Shown here piece after piece: positions 199 to 64,000 of a stretch of DNA of 64,000 nucleotides. Every line of letters begins with the position of its first letter. The first letter of the stretch is position 1. Below the pieces are notes generated by a model that saw only the letters and a program-made list of their open reading frames with translations, was not told the DNA's origin and made no database searches. The position numbers and the translations under genes are program-made. The stretch is from an uncultured Sphingobacteriaceae bacterium (GTDB lineage: Bacteria > Bacteroidota > Bacteroidia > Sphingobacteriales > Sphingobacteriaceae), in the NCBI GenBank assembly GCA_964251965.1, contig CAXULQ010000005.1, positions 82,358 through 146,357 on the forward strand, in the 5' to 3' direction.

Positions 199-244
199 GA
201 TGCTTCTTTTATCAACCTAATTTTAAGTTGATAAAAGGAGCATC
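199..244. terminator. bidirectional hairpin made of two inverted copies of the abundant ATGCTTCTTTTATC motif
   Basis: gatgcttcttttatcaac (199-216) and gttgataaaaggagcatc (227-244) are complementary in 17 of 18 positions with a 10-nt loop. It lies between convergent glyA and the comF-like gene and overlaps the latter's stop. Confidence 0.6.
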
Positions 245-941
245 ACGCTGTATAAGCAATTGCTGCAATACTGATCTTAACGTTTGAAACTTTTTGTAAA
301 ACATTACAGCAAGCTTCTAAAGTTGCGCCTGTGGTGATAATGTCATCAACTAATAAAATGTGTTTTCCATTTAAATGAGCAGGGTTTTTAACTGAGAAAA
401 CGTCCTTCATATTTTCGTAACGGGAAGTTCTGGATTTTTTGGTTTGGCTTTCTGTTCCTGTTGTCCGGATTAAATTATCAACCGAAACTGGAATTGATAG
501 TTTTTCTGCAAGTCCTTCTGCAAAGCTCAAACTTTGGTTATAACCTCTTTTTAACAGTTTCTGCTTGTGCAACGGAACGGGAATGATGGCATCCGCAGAA
601 GAAAAAATCTTGTTTTCCAGCAAACGCTTCCCGGTCAATTTGCCTAAATAAACGCCAACTTCGGGTTTGTTTTTGTATTTAAGCTGATGCATTAAGTTTT
701 GCACGCGGCTGGCTTTGCTAAAATAAAGCATAGCGGCGGCAGCTTCTAAAGGAACGCGGCCCCAAAATTGCTGTGCAACAGCGTTATCAGGCTGAAGGTG
801 AAAATCAGTATAAGGCAAATGGTACAGGCAATCGGCACAAATCAATTCCTCGTTGCGGTACAGGCTTTTGGCGCAAGCCTGGCAAAGTTCCGGGAAAATG
901 AGGGAGACAAAATCAGCAAAATAAGTTTGGCTTAAATTCAT
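243..941 (-). CDS. comF: ComF-family phosphoribosyltransferase-like protein
   Basis: N-terminal CxxC...CxxC zinc-finger-like pairs (CQAC, CADC) and a C-terminal PRT motif LLVDDIITTGATL. Confidence 0.75.
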   Translation of the reverse strand: MNLSQTYFADFVSLIFPELCQACAKSLYRNEELICADCLYHLPYTDFHLQPDNAVAQQFWGRVPLEAAAAMLYFSKASRVQNLMHQLKYKNKPEVGVYLGKLTGKRLLENKIFSSADAIIPVPLHKQKLLKRGYNQSLSFAEGLAEKLSIPVSVDNLIRTTGTESQTKKSRTSRYENMKDVFSVKNPAHLNGKHILLVDDIITTGATLEACCNVLQKVSNVKISIAAIAYTA

Positions 942-950
942 GATTTGCTG

Positions 951-964
951 ATACTTCTTTTATC
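951..964 (+). repeat. abundant-oligomer copy (atacttcttttatc), spacer
   Basis: Lies in the 31-nt spacer between rlmN stop and comF-like start. It is 13/14 to the core consensus and shares the 16-mer cttcttttatcgatat with the copy at 32641. Confidence 0.6.
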
Positions 965-972
965 GATATTTT

Positions 973-2022: not shown

Positions 2023-2137
2023 ACTGCAAAAATACTACTATAAAATAAGCACTGGTTAAATTCTATTTTTTTTACAAATTAAACAAGAACCTGATGCTAT
2101 CTATCCTAAAGTTAATTATATGCCGAAAATTTATTAA

Positions 2138-3344: not shown

Positions 3345-3358
3345 GGTAAAAGAAGTAT
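3345..3358 (-). repeat. abundant-oligomer copy (ggtaaaagaagtat), overlaps acyP start codon
   Basis: ttttttaggtggtaaaagaagtATG is almost identical over about 23 nt to the copies at 59271-59291 (spacer) and 56401-56424 (inside thrA). Confidence 0.6.
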
Positions 3359-3686: not shown

Positions 3687-5186
3687 TTGTCAACAGTAAA
3701 AAAATTTGCCGGCCAAACGGTAATCTACGGGTTAAGTACCATTGTTTCCAGGCTGCTTAACTTTATTCTTACTCCTTTATTTGTTTACGTTTATCCAACC
3801 AAAGTATATGGTGTGTTTGGCTATATGTACAGTTTGGCTTCGCTGATCAATCCGGTACTGGCTTTTGGTATGGAAACTACTTTTTTCCGATATTTGAACA
3901 AGCAGGATGCCGACAAGGATAAAGTTTACAGCAATACTTTTTTTACCATTGCATTTATAGCAGCCTTGTTTTTATTGTTTAGCCTGCCGCTTAGTAATTA
4001 CCTGGCTAACTGGATGAGTAGTAAAGATACCAATGCGGCAGATCAGGCACTATTTGTCCGCTTCTTTATTTATATTATTGTGGCCGATGCTTTGGCGGTT
4101 ATTCCTTTTGCCAAAGTTAGGGCAGATGGAAAACCAGCAAGGTTTGGGCTAATCAAACTGGTTAATATTTTCACTTTTGTAGGAGCCAATCTGTTTTTTC
4201 TGTTTGTTGTTCCGATGATTATCAAAAGCAATGGTTATGGTGCACAAGGATTGGCAAACTGGTATAGGCCGGCTTGGATCGGTTACGTATTTATTTCAAA
4301 CCTGATTGCAAGCGTTGTTACTTTGCTGTTTTTACTGCCCGAATTATTGCAGCTAAAATTTAAGTATGATGCTGCGCTTATCAAAAATATGTTGCTTTAT
4401 AGTTTCCCTATTTTGGTGGCCAATATTTCTTTCATCATTAATGAAAACATTGATAAAATATTTCTTAAAAACCTATTGCCGGCTTCACAGCAGCAGGATG
4501 TTGGTATTTATACGGCCTGCTGTAAAATCTCCATTTTTCTAAGCATTGCTGTCCAGGCTTTTCGATTAGGTGCCGAGCCTTTCTTTTTCAGTCATTCTAA
4601 AAACAAAAATTCTGGCGAAACTTATGCTAAAATCATGACTTATTTCGTTATCGCCGTTACCTTGATGTTTATTGCTTTATCGGCCAATATTGAGATTTTA
4701 AAAGGTTTTATAAAAGGAGGGAATGCTGTTCAACGTTCGCTGTACTGGTCTGGCTTAAAAGTGGTTCCAATATTATTGTTTGGTTATGTAAGTTTAGGTA
4801 TTTATATGAATTTATCTGTTTGGTATAAACTTTCTGATCAAACCAAATACGGCTTGTATATTTCCGGCGTCGGTGCTATTTTAACAATCATTCTCAATCT
4901 CATCTTCATCCCAAAATACAGTTACATGGCTTCTGCCTGGATTTCGCTGATTGCTTATGCTACGATGATGGTTTTGTCCTACATTCTTGGCCAAAAAAAT
5001 TATCCGATCCCTTATCAGCTTAAAAAAAACGTGGTTTATCTGCTTGCATCCGTGGTAATCGTATACTTATCTTTCACGGTTTTTCACAGAAGTTTGATTG
5101 TCGGCAACCTGTTTTTAGTTTTATTTGCAGCAGCTGCTTTATATACAGAACGCAAAGAGCTTCTTTTATTAGTTAGAAAAAAATGA
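3687..5186 (+). CDS. MOP-superfamily polysaccharide/oligosaccharide flippase (Wzx/MurJ-like)
   Basis: 499 aa, about 12-14 hydrophobic segments, typical flippase layout. TTG start in track. Overlaps the dut start by 4 nt. Confidence 0.65.
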
Positions 5187-5620: not shown

Positions 5621-7363
5621 ATGAAAATCAGCAGTCAATTTTGTGTGATGTTATTGGTGCTGCTTCCGGGCTTTGTTTTCGCGCAGCACAAAAAAAACAC
5701 CGATAAAAACAGCATGGTGATGGTGGTTGGCAAACCGCTAACCAGGGGCGACAGTGTTATAGTAAACGAACTTTTCTATCAGGCTTTGCACGAAAAAACA
5801 ATGGAAAATGCTTCATCTGCTGCCACTCTTTTTTCGCAGGTTTTACAGATTGATCCTGCAAATGATGCCGGTATGTTTGAACTGGCACGTATCCGCAGCA
5901 ATCAAAATAAAGATGCCGATGCCCGGCAACTGTTAGAGAAAGCGGTAACAGTAAACCCGGACAACGAATGGTATTGGCTGGCGCTTGCAGGTAATTACGA
6001 AAAAATCAACGATATACCAAAGCTGGAAAATGTATTTAAAGAACTGATCCGGATTAATCCTGATAGACCGGACTATTACACGGACGAGGCGAGGGCTTTG
6101 GTTGTGAACAAAAAATATGACGAGGCTTTATCTATTTATAATCAACAGGAAAACTTATTTGGAAAAAACGACGAAAGCATTTTAGGCAAACAAAAAATCT
6201 ACCTGAAACAAGGGAAACTGGATTTGGCGACCAAAGATTTGGAACAGATGATCCGGGAAAATCCGCAGGAAATCCGTTCTTATTTACGATTAAGCGAGTT
6301 ATATAATTCTAATAACCAGAACGACAAAGCATTAAAAGTTTTAGAAAGTGCAGGTAAAGTTAACCCGGACAATGCGTTAATTCATTTGGCTTTGGCCGAT
6401 GTTTATCGAGATCAAAAAAATTATCTTGCTTGTTTTAACCAGCTAAAAACAGCATTTGCCTCTACGTCATTAAAAATAGAAGAAAAACTGCGGATCATTT
6501 CTGGCTATTTCCCTAAATTTCCAGACCCGGAAGCAAAATCGAGCGCGCTGGAATTGAGCAGGATTATTTCTGTCGCACATCCGGATGATGCTCGGGCTTT
6601 TACTTTGTACGGCGATATGTTGGCACAAAATGCTTCTTACCAGCAGGCTATCCCGGTTTACCGTAAATCTTTGGCTTTGAACGATCAAACTTATGCCGTT
6701 TGGGAGCAATTAATCAGGCTGGAATTAGGCGAAAACCAATACGACCAGGTTTTAAAAGACGGAGAAGAAGCTCTTTCACTTTTCCCAAATCAAGCTGCCG
6801 CAAATTATTTGGTTGGAGTTGCCTATTCGCAAAAAGGCAAGGTAAAAGAAGCATTGGGTTATTTTAAAAATGCAATCTCTTTAGGTTCGTCCAATAAAGA
6901 ATTGCTGAGCCAGGTTTATGCAGCAATGGGCGATGGTTATCATCAATTGAAGGACGACGCGCAATCTGATGCAGCTTATGATAAATCTTTAACCAACAAT
7001 CCGGACAATGCGTACACTTTAAATAATTACGCCTATTATTTATCGTTAAGAGGAGAAAAATTAGACAAAGCGGTACAAATGTCTCGCCGAAGCAATGAGC
7101 TGCAGCCAGACAACGCTTCTTTTGAGGATACTTTTGCCTGGGTTTTCTTCAAACAAAAAAAATATACCGAAGCCAAAAGCTGGATGGAAAAAGCAATCAA
7201 GCATAATAAAAACAGTGCCGGGCTGGCAGAACATTATGGAGATATTTTGTACTTTTTAAACGATGCAGAAAATGCCGTAAAATATTGGAAAACAGCTAAA
7301 CAGCTCGGCAGTAACTCAACTGTTTTAGACCAAAAAATTAATGAAAAGAAGTATGTGGAATAA
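5621..7363 (+). CDS. tetratricopeptide-repeat protein with signal peptide
   Basis: N-terminal signal sequence followed by many TPR-like 34-aa units (NPDN/AW..LA patterns). Confidence 0.7.
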   Translation: MKISSQFCVMLLVLLPGFVFAQHKKNTDKNSMVMVVGKPLTRGDSVIVNELFYQALHEKTMENASSAATLFSQVLQIDPANDAGMFELARIRSNQNKDADARQLLEKAVTVNPDNEWYWLALAGNYEKINDIPKLENVFKELIRINPDRPDYYTDEARALVVNKKYDEALSIYNQQENLFGKNDESILGKQKIYLKQGKLDLATKDLEQMIRENPQEIRSYLRLSELYNSNNQNDKALKVLESAGKVNPDNALIHLALADVYRDQKNYLACFNQLKTAFASTSLKIEEKLRIISGYFPKFPDPEAKSSALELSRIISVAHPDDARAFTLYGDMLAQNASYQQAIPVYRKSLALNDQTYAVWEQLIRLELGENQYDQVLKDGEEALSLFPNQAAANYLVGVAYSQKGKVKEALGYFKNAISLGSSNKELLSQVYAAMGDGYHQLKDDAQSDAAYDKSLTNNPDNAYTLNNYAYYLSLRGEKLDKAVQMSRRSNELQPDNASFEDTFAWVFFKQKKYTEAKSWMEKAIKHNKNSAGLAEHYGDILYFLNDAENAVKYWKTAKQLGSNSTVLDQKINEKKYVE

Positions 7364-8147
7364 GGTTTTAGCTGTTGGTATGATCCTTTTGCTGTTTGGT
7401 TGTAAAGCTAAAAAACAATTAGTCCGCGTTAATAATCCAATAACTACTACGGATTCTGCAGTTGTTGCAAAGCCCGATAACAACAAAACCGAAAAACTGG
7501 CAGCGATACAAAGCAGGCAAATCAATTTTAATACTTTTTCTGGCAAAGCACGTACACATCTCGAAATTGATGATAAAGGTTATGATGTAACCATAAACAT
7601 CAGGATACAAAAAAACAAACAGATTTGGGTTTCCATTACGGCAATTGCAGGGATTGAAGTGGCCAGGGCAGTAATCACACCAGACAGTATTAAAATAATT
7701 AACAAGTTGCAAAGCGTTTATTTAAAAAAACCTTTTAGTTACGTTTATCAATACACAGGTAAGCAAATCAGCTATAAAACAGTGGAAGCGATTGTTGTTG
7801 GGAATGCGGTTCCGGAGTTTATGAATGCTGATGCTGAGATTTCTGCTAACGGAAACAACACCATTATTTCAGGGATTTTAAATGATCTGTCTTACCAAAC
7901 TACTTTTGGTGCCGATTTAAAAGTTGCCAGTTTGGGATTGAGCAACCAAAGATCTTCGCAAAAACTGAATGTAAACAACAGTAGTTTTATTCAGGCTGAT
8001 AACCGTATTTTGCCTTCTGTTATTGCGATTAGTTCTGCGGCTGGCCAAAACAGTTTTAAGGCTGATTTACATTATATTAAAGCTGAGTTTGACCAATCAC
8101 TTGATACTCCTTTTAACGAACCAAAAAATTATACGCTGATTAATTAA
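7341..8147 (+). CDS. DUF4292-type lipoprotein (LolB-like fold)
   Basis: Lipoprotein signal LLLFGC. The order dut, TPR, this gene, M23 peptidase is a common Bacteroidota arrangement. Overlaps the TPR gene's end by 23 nt. Confidence 0.6.
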   Translation: MKRSMWNKVLAVGMILLLFGCKAKKQLVRVNNPITTTDSAVVAKPDNNKTEKLAAIQSRQINFNTFSGKARTHLEIDDKGYDVTINIRIQKNKQIWVSITAIAGIEVARAVITPDSIKIINKLQSVYLKKPFSYVYQYTGKQISYKTVEAIVVGNAVPEFMNADAEISANGNNTIISGILNDLSYQTTFGADLKVASLGLSNQRSSQKLNVNNSSFIQADNRILPSVIAISSAAGQNSFKADLHYIKAEFDQSLDTPFNEPKNYTLIN

Positions 8148-10131: not shown

Positions 10132-10176
10132 AACTTACTGTAAATAAGTTTCGGCTTATTTACAGTAAGTTTTTTT
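10132..10176 (+). terminator. rho-independent terminator after tatA pair
   Basis: Perfect 17-bp stem aacttactgtaaataag / cttatttacagtaagtt, 6-nt loop, then a T-run. Confidence 0.8.
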
Positions 10177-13086: not shown

Positions 13087-13105
13087 TATTAAAAATGGCA
13101 TTTGT

Positions 13106-13140
13106 AAAAAGTCCCGGTACTTCTTTTACCGGGACTTTTT
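13106..13140 (+). terminator. rho-independent terminator after the transglycosylase gene
   Basis: aaaaagtcccggta / taccgggacttttt 14-bp stem. The loop and 3-prime arm contain tacttcttttacc, a copy of the abundant motif. Confidence 0.7.
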
Positions 13141-13169
13141 ACGTATAACATTTTAGAAACCAAAAATTT

Positions 13170-15479: not shown

Positions 15480-15518
15480 TTGCTTTTTATTGGCAAACGC
15501 CAAAAATATTTCTAACAC

Positions 15519-53561: not shown

Positions 53562-53921
53562 TTAATCAAAAGATAAAATAGATTTGATACTATTGCGCAA
53601 ACGATCAATAGTTTCTTCATCGAGGCGACCAATTTTTTCGCGCAGTCTCGATAAATCCAACGCCCTGATTTGATCGGCCAAAATATAAGATTGTTTTTGC
53701 AAACCATTTTCGATATTTGGTTCTACAGCAAGCCGGATTAAAGATATTCCTGCCCTGGGTTGTGAAGAAACAGCACAAGCAATGGTTGAACTGTGGCCTG
53801 CATCGTGTAAAATATCTGATTGCAAAATTACAACCGGACGAATTTTCCCAGGTTCGCTCCCTGATGCCGGCTCCAGGTTGGCAATCCAAATTTCGTACTG
53901 TTTGAGTTGTTGCTTATTCAT
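53562..53921 (-). CDS. mazF: MazF/PemK-family endoribonuclease toxin
   Basis: YEIWIANLEPASGSEPGKIRPVVILQSD..., 119 aa. The stop abuts the rsgA start. Confidence 0.8.
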   Translation of the reverse strand: MNKQQLKQYEIWIANLEPASGSEPGKIRPVVILQSDILHDAGHSSTIACAVSSQPRAGISLIRLAVEPNIENGLQKQSYILADQIRALDLSRLREKIGRLDEETIDRLRNSIKSILSFD

Positions 53922-54171
53922 CTAAATGTTTTTGCATATCAATTAAAGAAGCCGTTTCAAATATCTTTTTTAATTCTTTGTCCGGGTCATGTTCTTTTAA
54001 AATAGCTACTTCGCGCTGCAACTGTTCTTCCAAAGCTTTTCTTTTCAGCTTTTTATTATGGCCTGCCAATGCTTCTTTTATATAGCTATTTCTACTAACA
54101 TTCAATTCCTGCACTTGCTTTTCGGTTTCTTCAAAAAGCTTATCGTCTAACTTAAGCAGTATACTTTTCAT
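53914..54171 (-). CDS. ribbon-helix-helix antitoxin cognate to MazF
   Basis: 85 aa with an N-terminal beta-strand/helix pattern (ILLKLDDKLFEETEK...SRNSYIKEAL). Overlaps mazF by 8 nt. Confidence 0.65.
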   Translation of the reverse strand: MKSILLKLDDKLFEETEKQVQELNVSRNSYIKEALAGHNKKLKRKALEEQLQREVAILKEHDPDKELKKIFETASLIDMQKHLDE

Positions 54172-54173: not shown

Positions 54174-54187
54174 ATGCTGTTTTTATA
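54174..54187 (+). repeat. abundant-oligomer copy, ACAG variant (atgctgtttttata), between antitoxin start and its -7 box
   Basis: 12/14 match; begins 2 nt from the antitoxin start codon. Confidence 0.45.
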
Positions 54188-54441: not shown

Positions 54442-56892
54442 ATGAAAGTTTTAAAGTTCGGAGGCACATCCGTAGGTTCTGCCGAAAGCATCCAAACGCT
54501 GCTGCAAATCGTTAAAAAAGAAAGTGCAGTTTCCGGCAATCCGGTTGTAGTTGTTTCTGCGATGAGCGGCGTAACTAACCTGCTTTCTAAAATGGCCGAA
54601 AAAGCTTCCGTTGGAGAAGATTATGCGCTTTATCTGTCGGAATTAGAAACGCGCCATTTTGCAATAATTAAAACTTTGCTGGATGTGCAGCGGCAAAATC
54701 CGGTTTTTACCAAGCTTAAACTCTATTTTAACGAATTGGAAGATTTGCTGCAAGGAGTTTTCAGTTTGAAAGAACTCACGGCGCAAACCCGCGATTTGAT
54801 TTTAAGTTATGGCGAGCGTTGTTCGGCTTTTCTAATCAGCAAAATTGCTGAACAGCACTTTGCAGAAACCTGTTTTGTGGATGCAACCGAACTGGTAAAA
54901 ACCGATAGCAATTTCGGCCAAGCGCGTCTCAACACAGAATTGACCGAGCAACTGATCCAAGTTTTTTACCAGCAAAAACAGCATCAGGTTTTGTTCGTAA
55001 CCGGTTTTATCGGCAGCAACGATAAAAACCGGATTACCACTTTAGGCCGCGGCGGAAGCGATTATACCGCTGCAATTTTTGGTTCGGCATTGAATGTAGA
55101 AGAAATCCAGATCTGGACAGATGTAAACGGTATGATGACTGCCGATCCAAGAATGGTGAAAAAAGCATTCCCGCTGCCCGAACTTTCTTACACCGAAGCG
55201 ATGGAACTTTCTTACTTCGGTGCAAAAGTGATTTATCCGCCAACAATGATTCCGGCGTTTTTAAAACGTATTCCAATCGCCATTAAAAATACGTTTGAAC
55301 CGGAAGCTCCCGGAACCGTTATTCGCCATGATTGCGGCAAATCCAACCTCACGATCAAAGGGATTTCTTCGATTAACGAAATCAGCATCATCAATTTAGA
55401 AGGCAGCGGCATGGTTGGAAAAGCTGGGTTTAGCGGTCGGTTATTTTCGCTTTTGGCGCGGGAGCAGATCAACGTAATTTTGATTACGCAATCTTCTTCC
55501 GAGCACAGCATTACTTTCGCCATTCATCCGGCAGATGCGTTGAAAGCACAGCATTTGATCGAACAGGAATTTGAACTGGAGTTGCACGCCAAGAAATTAG
55601 AGTATCCAGTTTTCGAGCAAAACCTTTCCATTTTGGCTATTGTTGGCGAAAACATGAAGCAAACGCCTGGCATGTCTGGCAAGTTGTTTTATGCTTTGGG
55701 CAGAAACGGTGTAAATGTTCGGGCGATTGCGCAAGGTTCTTCGGAGTACAATATTTCCGTTGTGATTTCCCGTCCCGATCTTAATAAAGCATTAAACGCC
55801 GTTCATGATGCTTTTTTTATCGAACTAAATAAAACCCTGAACGCTTTCTGTTTGGGCACGGGAAATATCGGTAAAACTCTTTTCAACCAACTGCAGTCGC
55901 ACAGCAACTTTTTGCAGGAACATAACGGAATCCAGGTAAAAATTGCCGGCATCAGCAATACGCGAAAAATGGTTTTTGATGATAACGGCTTGTCGCTGAG
56001 CAACTGGCAGGAAACTTTGGATGCTTCCACAGAAGCGGCCGAATTGGAACTTTTTGTGGCGCGAATGCGGGAAATGAACTTGCCGAATGCGGTTTTTATT
56101 GATAACACGGCCAGTCCGAAACCAATTACTTTTTACGAAGAGATTTTTAAGTCGAACATTTCCATCGTAACCTGTAATAAAATCGGCAATTCCGGCAGTT
56201 ACGAACAATATAAAAAGTTTAAGGATGCAGCCCGAAGTTACGGCGTTGATTTTTATTACGAAACCAACGTTGGTGCCGGTTTGCCCATCATCCAGACGTT
56301 AAAAAACTTAATGCTTTCCGGAGATCGGATTTTGAAGATCGAAGCTATTTTATCGGGAACGATTTCTTTTATTTTTAATAATTTTAAAGGTGATGCCAAC
56401 TTTTTTGAGGTGGTAAAAGAAGCACAGGAAAAAGGTTATACCGAACCAGATCCGCGCGATGATTTAAGCGGTATGGATTTTATGCGAAAAATGCTGATTT
56501 TAGCGCGCGATGCCGGTTATCCGTTAGAAGCAAGTGATGTAAAACTGGAAAATATGTTGCCAAAAGCAGCAATCGAAGCCGGAACTGTAACCGAGTTTTA
56601 CGAAGCTTTACAAGCCGAAAACGCCTATTTTAATGCGATAAAAACAGCAGCGGAAAGCAACGGAAAAGTGCTGCGCTACATCGGGAAATTAGAAAACGGA
56701 CAAGTTTCGATCACCTTGCAACAGATTGATGCCGATCATGCTTTCTACTCGCTTTCGGGCAGCGATAACGTAATTTCCTTTACCACAGAACGTTACAAAG
56801 ATCGTCCGTTAGTGGTAAAAGGCCCCGGTGCAGGAGCGGAAGTTACAGCTGCCGGTGTTTTTGCTGATCTCGTGAATGTTGGTGCGCATTAA
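54442..56892 (+). CDS. thrA: bifunctional aspartokinase / homoserine dehydrogenase
   Basis: MKVLKFGGTSVG kinase start, ACT region, and a C-terminal HSD domain (GTGNIG, GAGLPII). 816 aa. Confidence 0.93.
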   Translation: MKVLKFGGTSVGSAESIQTLLQIVKKESAVSGNPVVVVSAMSGVTNLLSKMAEKASVGEDYALYLSELETRHFAIIKTLLDVQRQNPVFTKLKLYFNELEDLLQGVFSLKELTAQTRDLILSYGERCSAFLISKIAEQHFAETCFVDATELVKTDSNFGQARLNTELTEQLIQVFYQQKQHQVLFVTGFIGSNDKNRITTLGRGGSDYTAAIFGSALNVEEIQIWTDVNGMMTADPRMVKKAFPLPELSYTEAMELSYFGAKVIYPPTMIPAFLKRIPIAIKNTFEPEAPGTVIRHDCGKSNLTIKGISSINEISIINLEGSGMVGKAGFSGRLFSLLAREQINVILITQSSSEHSITFAIHPADALKAQHLIEQEFELELHAKKLEYPVFEQNLSILAIVGENMKQTPGMSGKLFYALGRNGVNVRAIAQGSSEYNISVVISRPDLNKALNAVHDAFFIELNKTLNAFCLGTGNIGKTLFNQLQSHSNFLQEHNGIQVKIAGISNTRKMVFDDNGLSLSNWQETLDASTEAAELELFVARMREMNLPNAVFIDNTASPKPITFYEEIFKSNISIVTCNKIGNSGSYEQYKKFKDAARSYGVDFYYETNVGAGLPIIQTLKNLMLSGDRILKIEAILSGTISFIFNNFKGDANFFEVVKEAQEKGYTEPDPRDDLSGMDFMRKMLILARDAGYPLEASDVKLENMLPKAAIEAGTVTEFYEALQAENAYFNAIKTAAESNGKVLRYIGKLENGQVSITLQQIDADHAFYSLSGSDNVISFTTERYKDRPLVVKGPGAGAEVTAAGVFADLVNVGAH

Positions 56893-56945: not shown

Positions 56946-57881
56946 ATGAAAAATTCTATAAAAGTATTTGCCCCGGCCACCGTTGCCAATGTGGTTTGCG
57001 GTTTTGATGTGCTGGGGTTTGCCGTGAATGCTCCCGGCGATGAAGTGGTTATGCGGCGCGTAGAAAAACCGGGCATCACCATCAAAAAAATTACCGGTGA
57101 TGATGGCCGTTTGCCTTTGGATGCTGCCAAAAATACGGTTAGTGCGAGCGTAAAACATTATCTCGATCATATCGGTCAGCCGGATTTAGGGATCGAAATC
57201 GAACTTTATAAAAAAATGCCGATTGGCAGCGGTTTGGGTTCGAGTTCTGCAAGTACGGTTGCGGGATTATTCGCTATCAATTCACTGTTAGATAATAAAT
57301 TAACACAAATAGAATTGGTTCCATTTGCGATGAAAGGTGAAGAACTGGCTTGCGGTTTTGGACATGCAGATAATGTTGCACCAGCTTTATTGGGCGGATT
57401 TGTGCTGATCAGAAGTTACGATCCGCTGGAAATTATCCGTTTGCCGCATCCGGAAAGCTTGTATTGCGCCATCATTTTCCCGGAAGTGGATGTGCCGACA
57501 AGAGATGCAAGGGAGATGATCCGAAAAAAAGTATTTCTAAAAGATGCCGTAACACAATGGGGTAATATTGCCGGTTTGGTAAGCGGTTTATTTTTGAAAG
57601 ATATTGACCTGATTGGCCGCAGCATGAAAGATATTCTGGTGGAGCCTGTCCGTTCTATTTTAATCCCGGATTTTTATAAAATGCGCGAAATGGCGATGGA
57701 AAGCGGTGCCGTAAGTTTCGGGATTTCCGGTTCCGGGCCATCCGTTTTTGCTTTTACCAAAAGTGAGGCCGATGCTGTTTTTATCACCCAAAAAATTGCA
57801 AAGCATTTGGCCAGCCTCCAAATAAAAAGTCAAACTTATGTTTCACCAATCAATGATAACGGACCGATGATTTTGGATTAG
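56946..57881 (+). CDS. thrB: homoserine kinase
   Basis: GHMP kinase motif PIGSGLGSSSAS, 311 aa. Confidence 0.92.
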   Translation: MKNSIKVFAPATVANVVCGFDVLGFAVNAPGDEVVMRRVEKPGITIKKITGDDGRLPLDAAKNTVSASVKHYLDHIGQPDLGIEIELYKKMPIGSGLGSSSASTVAGLFAINSLLDNKLTQIELVPFAMKGEELACGFGHADNVAPALLGGFVLIRSYDPLEIIRLPHPESLYCAIIFPEVDVPTRDAREMIRKKVFLKDAVTQWGNIAGLVSGLFLKDIDLIGRSMKDILVEPVRSILIPDFYKMREMAMESGAVSFGISGSGPSVFAFTKSEADAVFITQKIAKHLASLQIKSQTYVSPINDNGPMILD

Positions 57882-57944: not shown

Positions 57945-59267
57945 ATGAAACTCTACAGTACTAACAATAAAACCCACGAAGTATCTTTTCAGGAAGCTGT
58001 TTTTAACAGTTTGCCGCAGGATAACGGTTTGTATATGCCTGTGGAAATACCGCGTTTACCGGATGATTTTCTGGAAAATTTGCATCAGTATCCGTTGCCG
58101 GAAATTGCTTTTCGCGTAGCCGATAATTTGTTGCAAGGTATTATTCCTGCGGAGGATTTGAAAGCGATTATTGATGATGCGATCAACTTCCCGGCACCGG
58201 TTGTTAAGCTGACGGAAGATAAATATGTGCTCGAACTTTTCCACGGACCGTCATTGGCTTTTAAGGATTTTGGGGCGAGATTTATGAGCCGCGTAATGGC
58301 TTATTTTCTCCGCGAAGGCGAAAAGGAGCTGAACGTTTTGGTGGCCACTTCCGGCGATACCGGCGGCGCAGTAGCTTTGGGTTTTCTGGGCGTTCCGAAT
58401 ACGTTGGTTACAATTTTGTACCCGAAAGGAAAAGTAAGTTTGATCCAGGAATTGCAGCTGACCACCAACGGACAAAACATTCGCGCCATCGAAATTGACG
58501 GTACGTTTGATGATTGCCAATCACTTGTAAAACAGGCTTTTGTGGATACAGAACTGAATGAAAAGTTCCGGCTGACATCTGCAAATTCCATCAATATTTC
58601 CCGTTTAATCCCGCAAACTTTTTATTATTTCAATGCGGTTGCACAATTGCAGCATGGAGGCAAAACGGATGTTGTTTTTGCTGTTCCGAGCGGAAATTTT
58701 GGTAATATTGGCGCAGGTTTATTGGCCTGGAAAATGGGTTTGCCGGTAAAACATTTCATCGCCGCAACCAACGCGAATGATACGGTTCCAACTTTTTTAA
58801 ACGGTGGCATTTATCAGCCTAAACCTTCGGTAGCAACCATTTCTAACGCGATGGACGTGGGCAATCCAAGCAATTGGGTACGGATTATGAATTTATTTCA
58901 GGAAGATCAGGCTGAAATTAGCAAACTGGTAAGCGGTTATAGTTTTAATGATGCGCAAACGGAAGATGCTATTCGTCAGGTTTTCTACATGCACAATTAT
59001 GTGGTTTGTCCGCACACGGCTATTGCGTATTTGGCTTTGGAAGTTTGGCAGAAACAACATCCGCAGGAAAATAATACCGGCGTTTTCCTGGCAACTGCAC
59101 ATCCATGTAAATTCCCGGATGTTTTTACAGATGAAATTACTGCCGAAATTGAAATCCCGGAACAAGTTTTAGAATTGATGGATAAACCTAAAAAAGCTGA
59201 TAAACTTGGAATGGGCTATGCTTCTTTTAAGGCATATTTATTGGCGGAGCAAGGGACCTCAATTTAG
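57945..59267 (+). CDS. thrC: threonine synthase
   Basis: PLP-lysine motif SLAFKDFG, 440 aa. Confidence 0.92.
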   Translation: MKLYSTNNKTHEVSFQEAVFNSLPQDNGLYMPVEIPRLPDDFLENLHQYPLPEIAFRVADNLLQGIIPAEDLKAIIDDAINFPAPVVKLTEDKYVLELFHGPSLAFKDFGARFMSRVMAYFLREGEKELNVLVATSGDTGGAVALGFLGVPNTLVTILYPKGKVSLIQELQLTTNGQNIRAIEIDGTFDDCQSLVKQAFVDTELNEKFRLTSANSINISRLIPQTFYYFNAVAQLQHGGKTDVVFAVPSGNFGNIGAGLLAWKMGLPVKHFIAATNANDTVPTFLNGGIYQPKPSVATISNAMDVGNPSNWVRIMNLFQEDQAEISKLVSGYSFNDAQTEDAIRQVFYMHNYVVCPHTAIAYLALEVWQKQHPQENNTGVFLATAHPCKFPDVFTDEITAEIEIPEQVLELMDKPKKADKLGMGYASFKAYLLAEQGTSI

Positions 59268-59277: not shown

Positions 59278-59291
59278 GGTAAAAGAAGTAT
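59278..59291 (-). repeat. abundant-oligomer copy (ggtaaaagaagtat), 11 nt after thrC stop
   Basis: ttttttggtggtaaaagaagtat is nearly identical to 3335-3358. Confidence 0.6.
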
Positions 59292-59322: not shown

Positions 59323-59330
59323 TATATTTG
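59323..59330 (+). promoter_or_regulatory. candidate -7 box (TATATTTG) for the vapBC-like pair
   Basis: Exact TAnnTTTG ending 3 nt before ATG 59334, which implies a leaderless or very short-leader mRNA. Confidence 0.3.
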
Positions 59331-59333
59331 GAT

Positions 59334-59579
59334 ATGAAAAGTAAAGTTAACCTTACGATTGAAAAAGATTTGCTTTCAGAAATCAAATCTTATGCCGCAG
59401 AAAAGCAGATAAGCATTTCGGAATTGGTAGAGCATCATTTTAAGCAGCTAACAAAACCTAAGAGGAAATCCAAAATATTTGATATGGTAGAAAATCTTGA
59501 TATTAAAGAAAAATTTGAATCAATCCCTGATTTGAAAAAGGCATATTACGAAGATAATGCTGCAAAGTATGGCTTCTAA
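59334..59579 (+). CDS. small antitoxin-like protein upstream of PIN toxin
   Basis: 81 aa from ATG 59334. Overlaps the PIN gene start (ATGGCTTCTAA overlap). I do not recognise the fold family with confidence. Confidence 0.55.
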   Translation: MKSKVNLTIEKDLLSEIKSYAAEKQISISELVEHHFKQLTKPKRKSKIFDMVENLDIKEKFESIPDLKKAYYEDNAAKYGF

Positions 59580-59991
59580 AATACTATTAGATGCCAACGT
59601 TTTAATTGATTTTTTACTAGAACGAGAAGGTTTTGAAGTATCTAAAAGGCTGTTAAATACAATTCTTTATCATCCCTATAAAGTATTCGTTACACCTGCT
59701 ATTATTCACATTACTTCCCATTGGGTGAAGAAGTCGTTAGGTGTTGAAACTACAAAAATCTTATTGTTAGAGCTTTTAATAGATATAAATACCATTGATT
59801 GCAACCATAAAACGGCTATTTTGGCACTATCTTCAAACATGACTGATGTGGAAGATGCACTGCAATATTATACTGCTTTGCAACACGGTTTGGATTTTGT
59901 TATTACACAAGACAAAAATTTCCAAAAGCAGGCTATTCCATCTCTTCCAATTTATTCTCCACAGGAGTTTTTGACAACTTTTATCGATTAA
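59569..59991 (+). CDS. vapC: PIN-domain ribonuclease toxin (VapC-like)
   Basis: ILLDANVLIDFLL N-terminal acidic motif plus later DVEDALQ and ITQD acidic residues. About 140 aa. Confidence 0.7.
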   Translation: MASKILLDANVLIDFLLEREGFEVSKRLLNTILYHPYKVFVTPAIIHITSHWVKKSLGVETTKILLLELLIDINTIDCNHKTAILALSSNMTDVEDALQYYTALQHGLDFVITQDKNFQKQAIPSLPIYSPQEFLTTFID

Positions 59992-59997: not shown

Positions 59998-60603
59998 ATG
60001 ATCAACACCATCATTTTCGATTTAGGCAACGTTTTAATCAACTGGGAACCTAAACTTTTATACAACAAGATTTTCGATTCCGAAGAAAAAACTGATCATT
60101 TTATAGAAAATATTTGCACGCTGGCCTGGAATGAAGAACAAGATGCAGGCCGGACTTTAAAACAAGGAACTGATATTTTAATTGAACAATATCCTCAGTA
60201 TAAAACAGAAATCGAAGCTTATTACGACCGTTGGGAAGAAATGCTGGACGGTGCAATTGAAGGATCAGTAGAAATTTTTAGGCTATTAAAAGCCAGCGGA
60301 AAATATAAAATTTATGCGTTAACCAATTGGTCATCAGAACTTTTTCCTGTCGCCTTGCGCAACTTTGAATTTTTAAACTGGTTTGATGGCATTGTGGTTT
60401 CGGGCAATGAAGGCATCCGCAAACCGCATCCTGATTTTTTCCAGATTCTGTTTGACCGTTATCAAGTGAAACCGGAAGATGCTGTTTTTATCGATGATAA
60501 TTTAAGAAATGTGGAAGCTGCGCGAAAATTAGGAATTCAATCCATCCGTTTCACTTCCGCAGAACAACTGGAAAAAGAGTTACAGGATTTAAACATTTTG
60601 TAA
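59998..60603 (+). CDS. HAD-superfamily hydrolase (subfamily IA)
   Basis: Motif I IIFDLGNVL, motif II ALTNWS, motif IV VFIDDN. Confidence 0.85.
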   Translation: MINTIIFDLGNVLINWEPKLLYNKIFDSEEKTDHFIENICTLAWNEEQDAGRTLKQGTDILIEQYPQYKTEIEAYYDRWEEMLDGAIEGSVEIFRLLKASGKYKIYALTNWSSELFPVALRNFEFLNWFDGIVVSGNEGIRKPHPDFFQILFDRYQVKPEDAVFIDDNLRNVEAARKLGIQSIRFTSAEQLEKELQDLNIL

Positions 60604-60619: not shown

Positions 60620-60633
60620 ATGCTTCTTTTATC
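60620..60633 (+). repeat. abundant-oligomer copy (atgcttcttttatc), between convergent HAD and metF genes
   Basis: gcaatgcttcttttatcgacctaaaatc shares its first 22 nt with the copy inside gatA at 10342. Confidence 0.65.
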
Positions 60634-60642
60634 GACCTAAAA

Positions 60643-61596
60643 TCAAAACACTGCTTTTGCAATCCGTTTGGTTGGTTCTGCATTGCCCATCGTGTAAAAA
60701 TGTAACACCGGCGCGCCCATTTCTTTCAGTTCTTTACATTGGTTAATCATCCATTCAATCCCAACTTCTTTTACGTCTTTTTCGGTTTTGCAGGCTTGTA
60801 CCGCATCGCTTAAATCTTCCGGAATATCAATGTGAAATATTTTAGGCAGATTGACAAGCTGTTTGGAAGTTGTCAGCGGCTTTAAACCCGGAATTATGGG
60901 AATGTTAATATCGTTTTCGCGGCAGCATTTTACAAATTCTGCGTATTTGGAATTATCAAAAAACATTTGCGTTACCATAAAATCTGCGCCCAAATCAACC
61001 TTCTTTTTTAGAAACTGGAAATCAGTTTTCATGTTCGGCGATTCAAAATGCTTTTCCGGATAAGCAGCAATGCCAGTGCAAAAATCGGTTTTAAAAGCTT
61101 CGTGGTCTTCGTGCAGGTAAATGCCATTGTTCATGTTTTTTACCTGCTCTAATAACTCGGTTGTGTATGTATGTCCGCCTGGTGTCGGCACAAAACCGGC
61201 ATCGCCTTTTCGGGCATCTCCGCGTAAAACCAACACATTATCAATGCCCAGAAATTGTAAATCGATCAGCGCATATTCGGTTTCTTCTTTGGTAAAACCT
61301 CCACACAATAAATGCGGAACGGCATCTACTTTATAACGGTTCATGATGGCTGCACAAACCGCAACCGTTCCCGGGCGTTTGCGGTAAGTTAGTTTTTCCA
61401 GTAAACCGTTGGCGCGTTCTTTATAATAATGATCTTCACGGAGGGAAGTTACATCAATAAACGGCGGATTAAGTTCCATCAAAGGATCAATCGCATCAAA
61501 AATTCCCTGTATGCCGTGGCCCTTAATTGGAGGCAAAAGTTCGAAAGAGAAAAGAGTTTTACCAGTTGCGTTCTTAATATGATCAGTAATTTTCAT
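60643..61596 (-). CDS. metF: 5,10-methylenetetrahydrofolate reductase
   Basis: 317 aa with FSFELLPP and VLRGD motifs. Lies 17 nt downstream of metH. Confidence 0.9.
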   Translation of the reverse strand: MKITDHIKNATGKTLFSFELLPPIKGHGIQGIFDAIDPLMELNPPFIDVTSLREDHYYKERANGLLEKLTYRKRPGTVAVCAAIMNRYKVDAVPHLLCGGFTKEETEYALIDLQFLGIDNVLVLRGDARKGDAGFVPTPGGHTYTTELLEQVKNMNNGIYLHEDHEAFKTDFCTGIAAYPEKHFESPNMKTDFQFLKKKVDLGADFMVTQMFFDNSKYAEFVKCCRENDINIPIIPGLKPLTTSKQLVNLPKIFHIDIPEDLSDAVQACKTEKDVKEVGIEWMINQCKELKEMGAPVLHFYTMGNAEPTKRIAKAVF

Positions 61597-61613
61597 TTAT
61601 TCAGTTAGTATAA

Positions 61614-64000
61614 TTAGTAAGACAGATTTGGACTTAACCAGCGCTCTACCTCGTCTAAAGGCATCTGCTTCCTTTGGGCATAATCTTCAACTTGATCTTT
61701 GGTTATCTTGCCTAAACCAAAATATTTAGATTGCGGGTGGGCGAAGTAAAAACCACTTACTGAGGAAGCAGGCATCATCGCCAGGCTTTCTGTCAAGTAC
61801 ATGCCTGTATTTTTTTCCGCATCAAGTAATTTGAATAAAGTCCATTTTTCGGTGTGATCCGGACAAGCTGGATAACCTGGCGCCGGACGAATGCCCTGAT
61901 ATTTCTCCTTGATCATGTCTTCGCTGCTCAAATGTTCGTCTTTGGCATAACCCCAATATTCGCGGCGGACTAATTCGTGCATTTTTTCGGCAAAAGCTTC
62001 TGCCAAACGATCTGCTAAAGCTTTGGCCATAATGCTGTTGTAATCGTCGTGGTCTGCCTCAAACTTGGCTACCAATTCATCACAACCTAAACCTGTGGTA
62101 ACAGCAAAACCGCCCCAGTAATCGGCAACGCCCGAAGTTTTTGGGGCGATAAAATCAGCAAGCGCATAATAAGGTTCGCCTTTGGGTTTTTCGGCTTGCT
62201 GGCGAAGTGTGTAAATCGTATCTAAAACTTTGGTACGGCTTTCATCCGTGTATAATTCAATATCATCGCCCACAGAATTGGCTGGCCAGAAACCGATTAC
62301 TGCGTTTGCCTGAAGCTGTTTTTGCGATACAATTTCTTTGAGCAAAACCTGTGCGTCATCAAACAGTTTTTTGGCTTCGGCTCCCACAAAAGTATCGCTG
62401 AATATCTTCGGATAACTGCCGCGCAATTCCCAAGTGTGAAAAAAAGGCGTCCAGTCGATGTACGGAAGCAAATCCTCCAGCGGATAATCTTTAATCGTTT
62501 TCGTGCCGAGGAAAGTTGGTTTTGGGGCGATATCACCGTCAACACTAAGCTGGAATTTTTGTGCCGATGCTTCTTTTACCGGCAAAAATTTCTTATCACT
62601 GCGTTTATTCAAATGTGCTTCGCGTGCTTTGGCATATTCTTCTTTGATGCCGCTGATGTATTCGCCGCGCTTTTCTTTGTTCATCAAACTGCTGCAAACG
62701 GTTACACTTCGCGAAGCATCCAAAACATGTATGGCTGCGCCGGAATAATTGGGGTCGATTTTAACCGCTGCGTGAATCCGCGAAGTTGTTGCGCCTCCTA
62801 CAATCAGCGGAATAGTTAAGCCTTCTCGCTCCATTTCTTTGGCAAAATGCACCATTTCATCCAGCGAAGGTGTAATCAATCCGCTTAAACCGATGATATC
62901 CACTTTTTGCTTTTTAGCTTCTTCCAAAATGCGTTGCGCGGGAACCATTACGCCGAGATCGATCACTTCAAAATTGTTGCAGGCCAAAACCACGCCCACG
63001 ATATTTTTGCCGATGTCGTGCACATCGCCCTTTACGGTAGCCATTAAAACTTTTCCGGCGTTAGCGCGGGAATCTGCTGCATCTCCTCCGGCAGCCAAGT
63101 TTCTTGCTTTTTCCGCTTCAATAAAAGGCAGCAAATAAGCAACCGCTTTTTTCATCACGCGGGCAGATTTTACAACCTGCGGCAAAAACATTTTCCCGGC
63201 ACCAAAAAGATCGCCGACTACGTTCATGCCGTCCATCAGCGGCCCTTCAATCACTTCCAGGGGTTTGTCGGCTTTCTGGCGCGCTTCTTCCACATCAGCA
63301 TCCAGATATTCAATGATGCCTTTTACCAAAGCGTGCGACAACCGTTTTTCAACCGGTTCTTTGCGCCATTCTTCATCGCGCACTACTTCTTTTCCCTTGC
63401 TTTTTATGGTATCGGCGAAAGTAACCAGCCGTTCTGTTGCATCTTCGCGGCGGTTCAGCAACACATCTTCCACCAGTTCCAGCAAATCTTTCGGGATCTG
63501 CTCGTAAACTTCCAGCATCCCGGCGTTTACAATACCCATATCCATTCCGGCTTGTATCGCATGATACAAAAACGCCGAGTGCATCGCTTCGCGTACCACA
63601 TTATTTCCCCGGAAGGAAAACGAAATATTACTCACGCCGCCGCTAACTTTGGCCATCGGCAGGTTTTGCTTGATCCAGCGCGTGGCGTTGATAAAATCTA
63701 CCGCATAATTATTATGCTCTTCCAAACCGGTGGCAACAGTTAAAATGTTAGGGTCGAAAATAATATCCTGCGGAGGAAAACCTAATTCATCAACCAAAAT
63801 ATCGTAGCTTCTTTTACATATCTCAATCCGGCGTTCGTAACTATCCGCCTGGCCGTTTTCATCAAAAGCCATTACCACGGTTGCCGCCCCGTAATTCATG
63901 ATTTTACGGGCGTATTCTTTAAACTTTTCTTCGCCTTCTTTCAGGGAGATGGAATTGACGATGCCTTTTCCCTGCAAACATTTCAATCCGGCTTCAATAA
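61614..64000 (-). CDS. metH: cobalamin-dependent methionine synthase, C-terminal about 795 aa (5-prime end outside window)
   Basis: Pterin-binding region [24 protein letters not shown]12-binding [10 protein letters not shown], and an AdoMet-activation domain. The frame stays open to the window edge. Confidence 0.93.

Follow-up and report, generated by a model that had tools for sequence, protein, structure and literature searches.

Descriptions of DNA uptake signals come from just two families of Proteobacteria, each mainly associated with hosts (bioRxiv 10.1101/2025.10.24.684340), and these signals provide the main evidence in debates over whether transformation serves recombination or nutrition and over the origin of such signals by molecular drive. 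In the Pasteurellaceae, the Hin-type uptake signal sequence (USS) consists of a 9-bp core, AAGTGCGGT, and AT-rich flanks that are phased with the helix, while in the Neisseriaceae the DNA uptake sequence (DUS) is a 12-mer, AT-GCCGTCTGAA, which has dialects and is bound by the receptor ComP. Here we examine a stretch of 64,000 nucleotides from an uncultured Sphingobacteriaceae bacterium (contig CAXULQ010000005.1 of GCA_964251965.1; "the window" hereafter), which carries a hyper-abundant asymmetric word, ATGCT(TC/GT)TTTTA, in spacers and inside unrelated genes. A model that had read the letters of the window without database searches (the sequence-only reading) noticed this motif and proposed that it was a signal of the DUS or USS type. 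The observation holds in our analysis, and the genomic hallmarks suggest an uptake-type signal as the best-supported hypothesis: we put at roughly 0.55 the probability that the motif is an independently evolved signal kept by biased uptake and recombination, the first outside the Proteobacteria.

The properties of the USS that we compared with the motif are those summarised in bioRxiv 10.1101/2025.10.24.684340 and familiar from the USS literature. The architecture of the Hin-type USS is especially close to that of the motif, in that both occur at about 1 copy/kb on both strands, have a short conserved core and, at a distance of about one helical turn, an A/T-rich tract, place their genic copies in favoured frames at poorly conserved positions, are enriched in spacers, form inverted pairs acting as terminators (a prediction in the present case) and keep their positions among relatives. 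The two differ in that their sequences are unrelated, that one belongs to Gammaproteobacteria and the other to Bacteroidota, that the USS has two A/T tracts whereas only one is evident here, and that TC and GT forms of the core coexist in every motif-bearing genome, unlike in the USS. The USS also comes with uptake dependence, competence and a pilin receptor, whereas the motif is a candidate uptake signal. With the DUS, the motif shares a 12-nt word at a similar density, a lineage-specific, dialect-like character, inverted pairs in terminators (predicted ones here) between convergent genes, and occurrence in core housekeeping and genome-maintenance genes. The DUS has no phased A/T tract, unlike the motif, and its family-wide range is much broader than the clade described below. 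The consensus ATGCT(TC/GT)TTTTA-yC-N4-W6 (W, A or T) is not known to be related to either AAGTGCGGT or GCCGTCTGAA, and we take the ATGC start that it shares with the DUS to be a coincidence. Because of this lack of relationship, the motif, if it is an uptake signal, would have arisen independently rather than as a dialect. The DUS is also depleted in foreign DNA, which, according to PMC7371117, has been used to find integrative elements; for the motif, such depletion is borderline.

In an unbiased, strand-merged k-mer census of the window, the motif family ranked first at each k from 8 to 14. ATGCT(TC/GT)TTTTA occurs 32 times in the 64 kb, against about 1 copy expected from both Markov-5 and synonymous-codon nulls. 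Exact counts over the window gave 16 copies of GCTTCTTTTA and 11 of its reverse complement, 5+5 of ACTTCTTTTA/TAAAAGAAGT and 8+9 of GCTGTTTTTA/TAAAAACAGC, close to the values that the sequence-only reading had obtained by eye (15 and 11, about 10 and about 16), and its four coordinates for the 15-mer GCAATGCTTCTTTTA (10342, 26889, 49164 and 60617) were all exact. A 12-mer, ATGCTKYTTTTA, is present in 36 copies and the degenerate 10-mer RCTKYTTTTA in 68 (35 on the plus and 33 on the minus strand). At the two variable positions, ATGCT-NN-TTTTA is filled by TC 20 times, GT 12, TT 4, CC 2, GA 1 and GC 0, and neighbours with a single mismatch are otherwise almost absent, so the word is sharply defined.

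That the excess reflects codon usage, amino-acid composition or chance is an explanation with negligible probability. Composition does account for some copies, with about 9-14 degenerate 10-mers expected from it, and 12 exact 10-mer matches fail the position weight matrix (PWM) described below; some copies are also shared with outgroups, such as the match at 22756 in SprA, which encodes FKNS there as well. Observed counts nevertheless exceed codon-aware and Markov nulls 5- to 30-fold. Within each coding sequence (CDS), synonymous codons were shuffled so as to preserve the protein and its codon usage, a control that the sequence-only reading had suggested, and this gave 8.9 +/- 2.7 10-mers against 48 observed and 1.4 12-mers against 24; shuffling codon order gave 4.5 and 0.2, respectively. 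For the whole window, at a GC content of 40.3% (estimated earlier at about 40 percent), the Markov-5 null predicted 13.9 10-mers against 68 and 1.1 12-mers against 36. The best empirical null is provided by the orthologous genes of other species: in sister species, whose GC content is the same, these genes lack the motif, and GCTTCTTTTA has a density of 0.42/kb in the window versus 0.004/kb in 3.25 Mb around sprA from about 150 other Bacteroidota. Moreover, the motif is found in spacers, on both strands and in several frames. A second clade-enriched word, TTTGCTGG/CCAGCAAA, illustrates what a codon artefact looks like, and the motif is unlike it. This word has 28 copies versus about 4 expected (e.g. 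at 17837, 31761, 42537 and 54675), all in CDS and none in spacers, with no flank consensus; by eye it looks like TTG-CTG-G (Leu-Leu-Asp/Glu/Gly). We rejected it as a second DNA signal, since it is confined to CDS and has no flank consensus, and it is likely to reflect a shift in codon usage in the clade.

We built a PWM iteratively, which reached 24.7 bits, and set its threshold to give about 1 hit per 64 kb in related genomes that lack the motif. At this threshold the window has 70 sites, 31 on the plus and 39 on the minus strand. About 12 of the 68 degenerate 10-mer matches fall below the full PWM and are probably background copies, as the nulls predict. Among the core positions given by the sequence-only reading, 7342 and 33424 are copies with one mismatch or an indel and 63815 is about 8 nt off. 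The sites follow in window coordinates with their PWM scores, and the comF-family gene is given last.

200-211, plus strand: motif site ATGCTTCTTTTA, intergenic, left arm of inverted pair downstream of comF; 29.0
232-243, minus strand: motif site ATGCTCCTTTTA, right arm of inverted pair downstream of comF; 27.5
951-962, plus strand: motif site ATACTTCTTTTA, comF/rlmN spacer; 24.9
2041-2052, minus strand: degenerate site GTGCTTATTTTA, spacer; 19.8
3347-3358, minus strand: motif site ATACTTCTTTTA, spacer, AT overlapping next start codon; 27.1
3934-3945, plus strand: motif site ATACTTTTTTTA, CDS 3687-5186; 22.5
4323-4334, plus strand: motif site TTGCTGTTTTTA, CDS 3687-5186; 22.5
5704-5715, minus strand: motif site ATGCTGTTTTTA, TPR-protein CDS; 27.1
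6444-6455, minus strand: motif site ATGCTGTTTTTA, TPR-protein CDS, LKTA, outgroups differ, kept in 3 clade loci; 20.1
6843-6854, minus strand: motif site ATGCTTCTTTTA, TPR-protein CDS, VKEA, outgroups KKAL, kept in 3 clade loci; 20.9
8104-8115, plus strand: degenerate site ATACTCCTTTTA, lolB1 CDS; 16.7
10345-10356, plus strand: motif site ATGCTTCTTTTA, gatA, NASFID, outgroups NAKNVD; 32.1
10621-10632, minus strand: degenerate site ATACTCTTTTTA, gatA; 23.3
10934-10945, minus strand: degenerate site GTACTTTTTTTG, gatA; 20.5
10949-10960, minus strand: motif site ATGCTTTTTTTA, gatA, DKKSIA, TC form in relatives, outgroups GKKKIA; 28.1
12881-12892, minus strand: motif site ATGCTGTTTTTA, mltD-like CDS, TC form in two relatives (IKTA to VKEA or the reverse); 21.7
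13117-13128, plus strand: motif site GTACTTCTTTTA, loop and stem top of hairpin 13103-13143; 23.9
13175-13186, minus strand: motif site TTACTTCTTTTA, first codons of malic enzyme CDS; 19.7
14743-14754, plus strand: degenerate site, malic enzyme CDS; 17.8
15468-15479, minus strand: motif site ATGCTGTTTTTA, directly after malic enzyme stop codon; 28.3
19356-19367, plus strand: degenerate site, sprA; 17.5
21045-21056, minus strand: degenerate site, sprA; 19.0
21789-21800, minus strand: weak site, sprA, not kept in relatives; 15.4
23200-23211, minus strand: motif site ATGCTTTTTTTA, left arm of inverted pair, convergent genes; 23.4
23230-23241, plus strand: motif site ATGCTTCTTTTA, right arm of same inverted pair (23189-23250); 22.2
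24925-24936, minus strand: motif site ATGCTTCTTTTA, spacer; 28.8
25725-25736, minus strand: motif site TTGCTTCTTTTA, feoB, kept in 4 clade loci; 22.1
26892-26903, plus strand: motif site ATGCTTCTTTTA, feoB, NASF, kept in 4 clade loci; 28.9
27807-27818, minus strand: motif site ATGCTTCTTTTA, SprT-like CDS, kept in 4 clade loci; 24.4
29058-29069, minus strand: motif site TTGCTTCTTTTA, RibD_C CDS; 26.4
29274-29285, minus strand: degenerate site, RibD_C CDS; 17.9
30949-30960, minus strand: motif site ATGCTGTTTTTA, spacer, TC form at same site in relatives; 31.0
31786-31797, plus strand: motif site ATGCTTCTTTTA, M28 peptidase CDS, GT form in relatives; 21.5
32638-32649, plus strand: motif site GTGCTTCTTTTA, rpiB; 28.4
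32985-32996, minus strand: motif site ATACTTCTTTTA, tatC/rpiB spacer; 20.8
35227-35238, plus strand: weak site, accC; 14.8
35368-35379, minus strand: motif site ATACTGTTTTTA, accB/accC spacer; 21.8
35940-35951, minus strand: degenerate site ATACTGATTTTA, gene edge; 20.0
38710-38721, minus strand: motif site ATGCTTCTTTTA, spacer; 31.8
40254-40265, plus strand: motif site ATGCTGTTTTTA, ksgA-like CDS; 23.3
41324-41335, plus strand: motif site ATGCTTCTTTTA, 2-hydroxyacid dehydrogenase CDS; 24.8
41493-41504, minus strand: motif site ATGCTTCTTTTA, 2-hydroxyacid dehydrogenase CDS; 32.9
42470-42481, minus strand: degenerate site, greA; 26.1
43513-43524, minus strand: motif site ATGCTTTTTTTA, inverted pair between convergent HIT gene and ruvC; 23.2
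43523-43534, plus strand: motif site ATACTTCTTTTA, same inverted pair (HIT gene/ruvC); 24.2
44676-44687, plus strand: motif site GTGCTGTTTTTA, hypothetical CDS; 25.8
45238-45249, minus strand: motif site ATGCTGTTTTTA, GT2 CDS; 26.9
46731-46742, minus strand: motif site ATGCTTCTTTTA, ABC permease CDS; 27.8
46784-46795, minus strand: motif site ATGCTTCTTTTA, ABC permease CDS; 28.8
48824-48835, minus strand: motif site ATGCTGTTTTTA, spacer; 27.2
49167-49178, plus strand: motif site ATGCTTCTTTTA, rnhB, read ATG-CTT-CTT-TTA; 33.0
50062-50073, minus strand: motif site ATGCTTCTTTTA, gcvT; 21.3
50637-50648, plus strand: motif site ATGCTTCTTTTA, 6 nt after gcvT stop; 29.9
51795-51806, plus strand: motif site ATACTTTTTTTA, mazG-like CDS; 21.9
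52060-52071, plus strand: motif site GTGCTTCTTTTA, mazG-like CDS; 28.3
53057-53068, plus strand: motif site ATACTTCTTTTA, rsgA; 26.0
54069-54080, plus strand: motif site ATGCTTCTTTTA, mazE-like antitoxin CDS; 22.4
54174-54185, plus strand: motif site ATGCTGTTTTTA, spacer; 20.5
54973-54984, minus strand: degenerate site, thrA; 21.9
55808-55819, plus strand: motif site ATGCTTTTTTTA, thrA; 23.9
56414-56425, minus strand: motif site GTGCTTCTTTTA, thrA; 25.8
56561-56572, minus strand: degenerate site, thrA; 18.7
56639-56650, minus strand: motif site CTGCTGTTTTTA, thrA; 27.6
57772-57783, plus strand: motif site ATGCTGTTTTTA, thrB; 32.1
59218-59229, plus strand: motif site ATGCTTCTTTTA, thrC; 25.2
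59280-59291, minus strand: motif site ATACTTCTTTTA, spacer after thrC; 24.5
60479-60490, plus strand: motif site ATGCTGTTTTTA, HAD hydrolase CDS; 26.4
60620-60631, plus strand: motif site ATGCTTCTTTTA, spacer, convergent genes; 29.8
62150-62161, minus strand: degenerate site TTGCTGATTTTA, metH; 21.8
62567-62578, plus strand: motif site ATGCTTCTTTTA, metH, best-scoring copy; 33.7
243-941, minus strand: comF-family gene, TIGR00201 ComF match at 2e-28 (weaker than the curated cutoff requires), homologs annotated as ComF family proteins, flanked on either side by motif copies

Alignment of the copies revealed an asymmetric core of 12-14 bp, (c)(g)ATGCT[T/G][C/T]TTTTA[y]C[r]c, followed by about 4 unconstrained bases and then, roughly one helical turn downstream at +17 to +22, an A-run or T-run of 5-6 bp, in agreement with the extended consensus and downstream tract that had been read by eye. 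In this tract 5.3 of the 6 positions are A or T, versus 3.6 expected, the runs are homopolymeric, and mutual information between tract positions is high. The consensus flanks, CGAT...ATCG, appear complementary. Pairing between them is no higher than column composition predicts at 9 of 11 positions, the exceptions (P = 0.019 and 0.0005) being attributed to a few terminator hairpins, and Rfam returned no match for the motif; on these two grounds we rejected a hairpin or RNA element. Since the A/T run is homopolymeric and the flanks do not covary, the motif is best read as a signal in duplex DNA rather than as an RNA or single-strand structure. The two variable positions of the core do covary, with TC in 37, GT in 22, TT in 8 and GC in 1 of the 68 10-mers (Fisher P = 3e-10).

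The window is 94% coding, and almost all of its genes have housekeeping functions; they include comF, rlmN, dut, gatA, ruvA, sprA, gcvH, feoB, tatC, accBC, fabH, plsX, pdxA, greA, ruvC, rnhB, gcvT, thrABC, metF and metH, along with mazEF and vapBC modules. CDS hold 48 of the 68 10-mer copies (0.80/kb), and the remaining 20 (5.3/kb) fall in non-coding DNA, which makes up 5.9% of the window; this bears out the earlier count of about 20 copies in less than 10 percent. The CDS copies, 18 sense and 30 antisense, use the frames that the sequence-only reading had described, encoding ASF/AVF, LLL (including MLLL in rnhB), xKEA/xKTA and KRS/KNS. Neither the antisense frame with TAA nor the sense Cys-Phe-Phe-Tyr frame was used by any CDS copy in the window. 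The longest stretch without an exact copy spans 6.3 kb (15480-21788, comprising ruvA and most of sprA) and contains only weak PWM sites, at 19356 and 21045. This gap is borderline relative to random placement (P = 0.054) and may be a consequence of tight constraint on the SprA protein.

A polar recombination or segregation signal, such as Chi or the FtsK-orienting polar sequences (KOPS), might be sought in a core region with ruvA, ruvC and rnhB, and the Chi and KOPS/AIMS octamers resemble the motif in being over-represented and spread through the core genome. Such signals, however, are co-oriented with replication, shorter and several-fold rarer, whereas the motif shows no polarity: the near-equal orientations noted by the sequence-only reading hold for both 10-mers and PWM sites, and the strands are interleaved (31 runs versus 35 +/- 4 expected) with no switch point in 64 kb. 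Its density of about 1/kb and its roughly 25 bits over about 28 bp also far exceed those octamers. We consider a Chi- or KOPS-type function very unlikely, principally because of this lack of polarity.

Four spacer hairpins that involve the motif are terminator-like by sequence. Three of them are inverted pairs, as had been reported earlier, and one more contains a single copy in its loop and stem top (13103-13143; -31 kcal/mol, z -7.2). Two of the pairs are flanked by convergent genes (23189-23250, -19.5 kcal/mol, z -5.4; 43499-43548, -27.8 kcal/mol, z -6.4), and the third (199-245), recognised by reading the letters, comes right after comF; a pair at this place recurs in Mucilaginibacter arboris and in a 3.70-Mb contig, ERZ25067825:ctg182855, of a metagenome-assembled genome (MAG). 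These hairpins, together with the strong enrichment in short spacers (5.3/kb), are what one would expect if the copies were decayed mobile units of the repetitive extragenic palindrome (REP) or miniature inverted-repeat transposable element (MITE) kind, or terminator modules spread by insertion. Against this, 48 of the 70 PWM sites (69%) lie inside housekeeping CDS, most copies are single, the flanks show excess complementarity at only 2 of 11 positions and Rfam has no match. Of 12 CDS sites that could be aligned, 7 are colinear with outgroup Mucilaginibacter proteins, and the other 5 fall in variable stretches with indels in individual outgroup sequences and no inserted unit shared by the clade. 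In the alignments the motif codons replace variable residues: in GatA, NAKNVD became NASFID and GKKKIA of the outgroups became DKRSIA, while in the TPR protein KDFKKALG became GMVKEALS. Given these colinear alignments and amino-acid changes, the sites appear to have arisen by substitution rather than insertion. Location within CDS and substitutional origin refute mobile units for the CDS copies and leave such units, as an overall explanation, extremely unlikely.

Although clade members are only about 80% identical to each other in nucleotide sequence, 87 of 116 alignable window sites (75%) are retained in other clade species, against about 10% expected from average per-site identity. Third codon positions are 80-94% identical inside 12-mers versus 55-64% elsewhere in the same genes, and non-coding positions are 85-100% identical inside motifs versus 73-79% elsewhere. 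Several orthologous sites (12881, 30949 and 31788) have the TC form in some species and the GT form in others, and that at 10949 shows the TT form, an apparent intermediate. At 12881 some clade species encode IKTA and others VKEA, with a valid motif in the DNA either way. These patterns indicate that the constraint acts on DNA, not protein, and that the copies are not insertions.

Another way to view the motif is as a functionless by-product of mutational, repair or gene-conversion bias, for example very-short-patch-like repair or a selfish conversion element, as proposed for highly iterated palindromes. The closest example is HIP1 (GCGATCGC) of cyanobacteria, a hyper-abundant word in coding and non-coding DNA that is reported to be imposed on protein-coding sequence (PMC4390886). 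HIP1 is palindromic, 8 bp long and linked to orphan methyltransferases, whereas the motif is asymmetric, carries about 25 bits and is flanked by an A/T tract. A biased process would account for a lineage-specific word that is made by point substitutions in coding and non-coding DNA alike, and the series TC, TT, GT resembles a mutational path. It would not readily account for a specificity of 25 bits that includes a phased A/T tract, which is not known from any repair bias, or for retention across about 20% divergence with raised conservation at every codon position. Furthermore, the two accepted forms differ at two adjacent positions, and the forms between them are rare (TT) or nearly missing (GC: 0 among 12-mers and 1 of 68 10-mers), which points to a recognition filter rather than a mutation spectrum. 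On this evidence we judge a mutational origin to be improbable.

Comparison of SprA sequences placed the window within the Sphingobacteriaceae, adjoining Mucilaginibacter, and the window belongs to a narrow clade of that genus. The copies are not confined to it: all nine clade loci (L036, L081, L082, L096, L281, L282, L284, L285 and L288), among them that of M. arboris GCA_009754915.1, have 0.96-1.34 sites/kb; their SprA is at least 87% and their ComF at least 76% identical. By group, the density is about 0.9-1.2 sites/kb in L036, L081, L082 and L096 (SprA 87-89% identical), 1.0-1.2 in L281 (M. arboris) and L282 (76% ComF identity), and 1.28-1.34 in L284, L285 and L288, which cover the right half of the window. 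In L281 and L282 the motif continues over 10 kb past the left edge of the window, at 1.4 sites/kb. The right-half loci were returned as orthologs by a search with the MazF toxin, whose mazEF module occupies the same syntenic place in relatives. Homologs of ComF form a discrete cluster at 76-100% identity, including the cultured M. arboris (GCA_009754915.1) and the 3.70-Mb MAG contig, followed by a gap down to 64%. The nearest sister, L283, which stands at that 64%, has 0-1 site over a length of 20.7 kb; by PWM scan, the density is 0-0.05 sites/kb in those outgroup loci of Mucilaginibacter that are closest (SprA 70-73%); and about 150 further Bacteroidota loci (SprA at most 73%) have at most 0.25/kb by 10-mer count. 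With nine motif-rich loci and motif-poor sisters, the motif is thus a property of one narrow clade, at genus level or below, throughout the sampled ~85 kb. By extrapolation, a genome would hold hundreds to thousands of copies.

The matches to these hallmarks in Pasteurellaceae and Neisseriaceae signals are the reason for taking an uptake-type signal as the best explanation. All of the genomic hallmarks cited by the sequence-only reading (about 1/kb, strand parity, tolerated frames, spacer enrichment and inverted pairs) were borne out, and they support an uptake function as a hypothesis. To these we add sharp restriction to one lineage, retention at orthologous positions, constraint on synonymous positions, origin by substitutions that alter amino acids and, at borderline significance, depletion in low-GC accessory insertions. 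Such a signal could work as follows. Cells of the M. arboris clade would be naturally competent, and a surface or periplasmic DNA receptor would prefer fragments that bear the motif, whose A/T tract may help the DNA to bend or kink during passage. Preferred fragments would be taken up and recombined more often, so that mutations toward the motif would spread and contrary ones would be replaced, a process of molecular drive to which selection for conspecific DNA may contribute. The motif would then build up to about 1/kb wherever sequence constraint permits: spacers would be filled, with paired copies doubling as predicted bidirectional terminators, and genes would be entered in stop-avoiding frames at poorly constrained amino-acid positions. 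Natural transformation does occur in Bacteroidota: in Riemerella it depends on ComEC, DprA, ComF, RecA and further proteins whose type is not known (PMC8459023). R. columbina shows a preference for its own DNA, but only A-rich low-complexity words were found there (PMC7965970). Our literature searches found no uptake sequence in Bacteroidota, no report of competence in Mucilaginibacter and no mention of the motif, in agreement with the earlier statement that nothing comparable is described for this phylum.

Several points nonetheless weigh against an uptake signal. Competence of the clade is a prediction: the only competence-associated gene in the window is comF, at the place given by the sequence-only reading beside the first motif copies, and this widely distributed gene occurs in motif-free sister lineages too. 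Known uptake-signal receptors are type IV minor pilins, and since to our knowledge neither type IV pili nor ComP and its pilus machinery are a known feature of Bacteroidota, a different receptor must be assumed. A simple additive model of one receptor does not predict the covariation of TC and GT, for which two receptors or readout of DNA shape are possible explanations. Spacing is no more regular than random (coefficient of variation 1.02), and the sample amounts to about 85 kb of chromosome over the nine loci. Accessory DNA gives only a borderline signal: low-GC insertions that vary among clade genomes, 5.9 kb in total, contain 2 sites versus about 6.7 expected (P about 0.04), a depletion that is suggestive only in so small a sample. 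Those counted were an IVP gene, a YoeB-Phd module, a gene for a 409-aa protein, vapBC, DUF6364 and a 2.45-kb M. arboris insert.

Finally, the same hallmarks would fit any strong, abundant, sequence-specific function in binding duplex DNA. The motif could be the site of a clade-specific protein without a role in uptake, such as a chromosome organiser or bender, a cofactor of replication or repair, or a marker of "self" for defence or recombination, with selection for binding maintaining the sites. An asymmetric core with an A/T tract one helical turn away would make a footprint of about 28 bp that is typical of DNA benders, conservation at the DNA level and strand neutrality fit equally well, and the sharp clade boundary could mean the gain of one protein. 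However, thousands of individually dispensable 25-bit sites would need selection strong enough to override residues of housekeeping enzymes, whereas drive by biased uptake requires no benefit per site. The sites are also not concentrated at promoters; they showed no preference for gene ends, being uniform along genes (Kolmogorov-Smirnov P = 0.99), and occur in either orientation. We know of no precedent for such density and information content outside uptake signals. We regard a binding protein of this kind as possible but doubtful. Among the alternatives raised by the sequence-only reading, a nucleoid-protein or other DNA-binding site is thus the one that we retain, as the main rival, REP/MITE decay and Chi-like sites having been rejected.

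We would give about even odds to the more specific proposition that this is the first uptake signal outside the Proteobacteria, in a young clade of soil Mucilaginibacter with no known type IV pilus and hence perhaps a new kind of receptor; in that case the interchangeable TC and GT cores may reflect two receptors or shape readout. An independent third case, in a free-living soil lineage of Bacteroidota and of very recent and sharply bounded origin, would make sequence-biased transformation a recurrent evolutionary outcome rather than a peculiarity of two host-associated families. With sister species that lack the motif as natural controls and a cultured type strain available, such a case would allow direct study of signal origin, receptor gain and the dynamics of accumulation. 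Because M. arboris is cultured and has motif-free sisters, the uptake hypothesis is directly testable. If true, it would also be of practical use in manipulating Mucilaginibacter genetically and would help to recognise foreign DNA in clade genomes. If the motif does not serve uptake, then a 25-bit word at about 1/kb, imposed on housekeeping proteins, would point to a new genome-wide DNA-protein system.

Other searches were less informative. MiaB of an outgroup, used as a probe for a distant region of clade genomes, gave at least 120 matches, and those listed were all closer to the outgroup; the protein is too conserved for this purpose. Searching a viral collection with GATGCTTCTTTTAYC gave at least 120 single chance matches and no motif-dense viral contig among the matches listed, a result uninformative on phages of the clade. 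A scan of the window for sigma-70 promoter and terminator consensus sequences gave no information on the motif.

We also made some minor observations on the clade and its loci. The L036 locus (JBPBQN010000094.1; protein P0022) comes from a MAG labelled Janthinobacterium lividum, a betaproteobacterium, and the assembly looks like a case of mis-binning or contamination: it has contigs of motif-clade Mucilaginibacter with an 87% identical SprA, a type IX secretion system gene and the motif at about 1/kb. Precomputed Pfam matches to PF18912 (double-zinc-ribbon) are present for many outgroup ComF proteins and for none of the clade members at 76-100% identity, a difference that may be only a threshold effect. 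Synteny with other Mucilaginibacter stops immediately downstream of sprA (window 23183-33000 compared with, e.g., L040 17050-27050), where outgroups have miaB and a sigma-54-type regulator and the motif clade carries, among others, gcvH, a vanZ-like gene and feoB. Small toxin-antitoxin modules and further genes of low GC content (0.30-0.35) sit in different spacers in each clade genome, the region being otherwise colinear; examples are the vapBC-like genes at window 59328-59991, and insertions at 2191-2694 and 12175-12760 in L284, 2710-4002 in L288 and 14313-16762 in L281. The mazEF-like module at window 53562-54171, by contrast, keeps its position across the clade and carries motif copies, whereas the variable inserts are almost without them. 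Just upstream of gatA, at 10132-10171, a hairpin with a perfect 18-bp stem is followed by a T-run, a strong structure that resembles an intrinsic terminator by its sequence and is unrelated to the motif.

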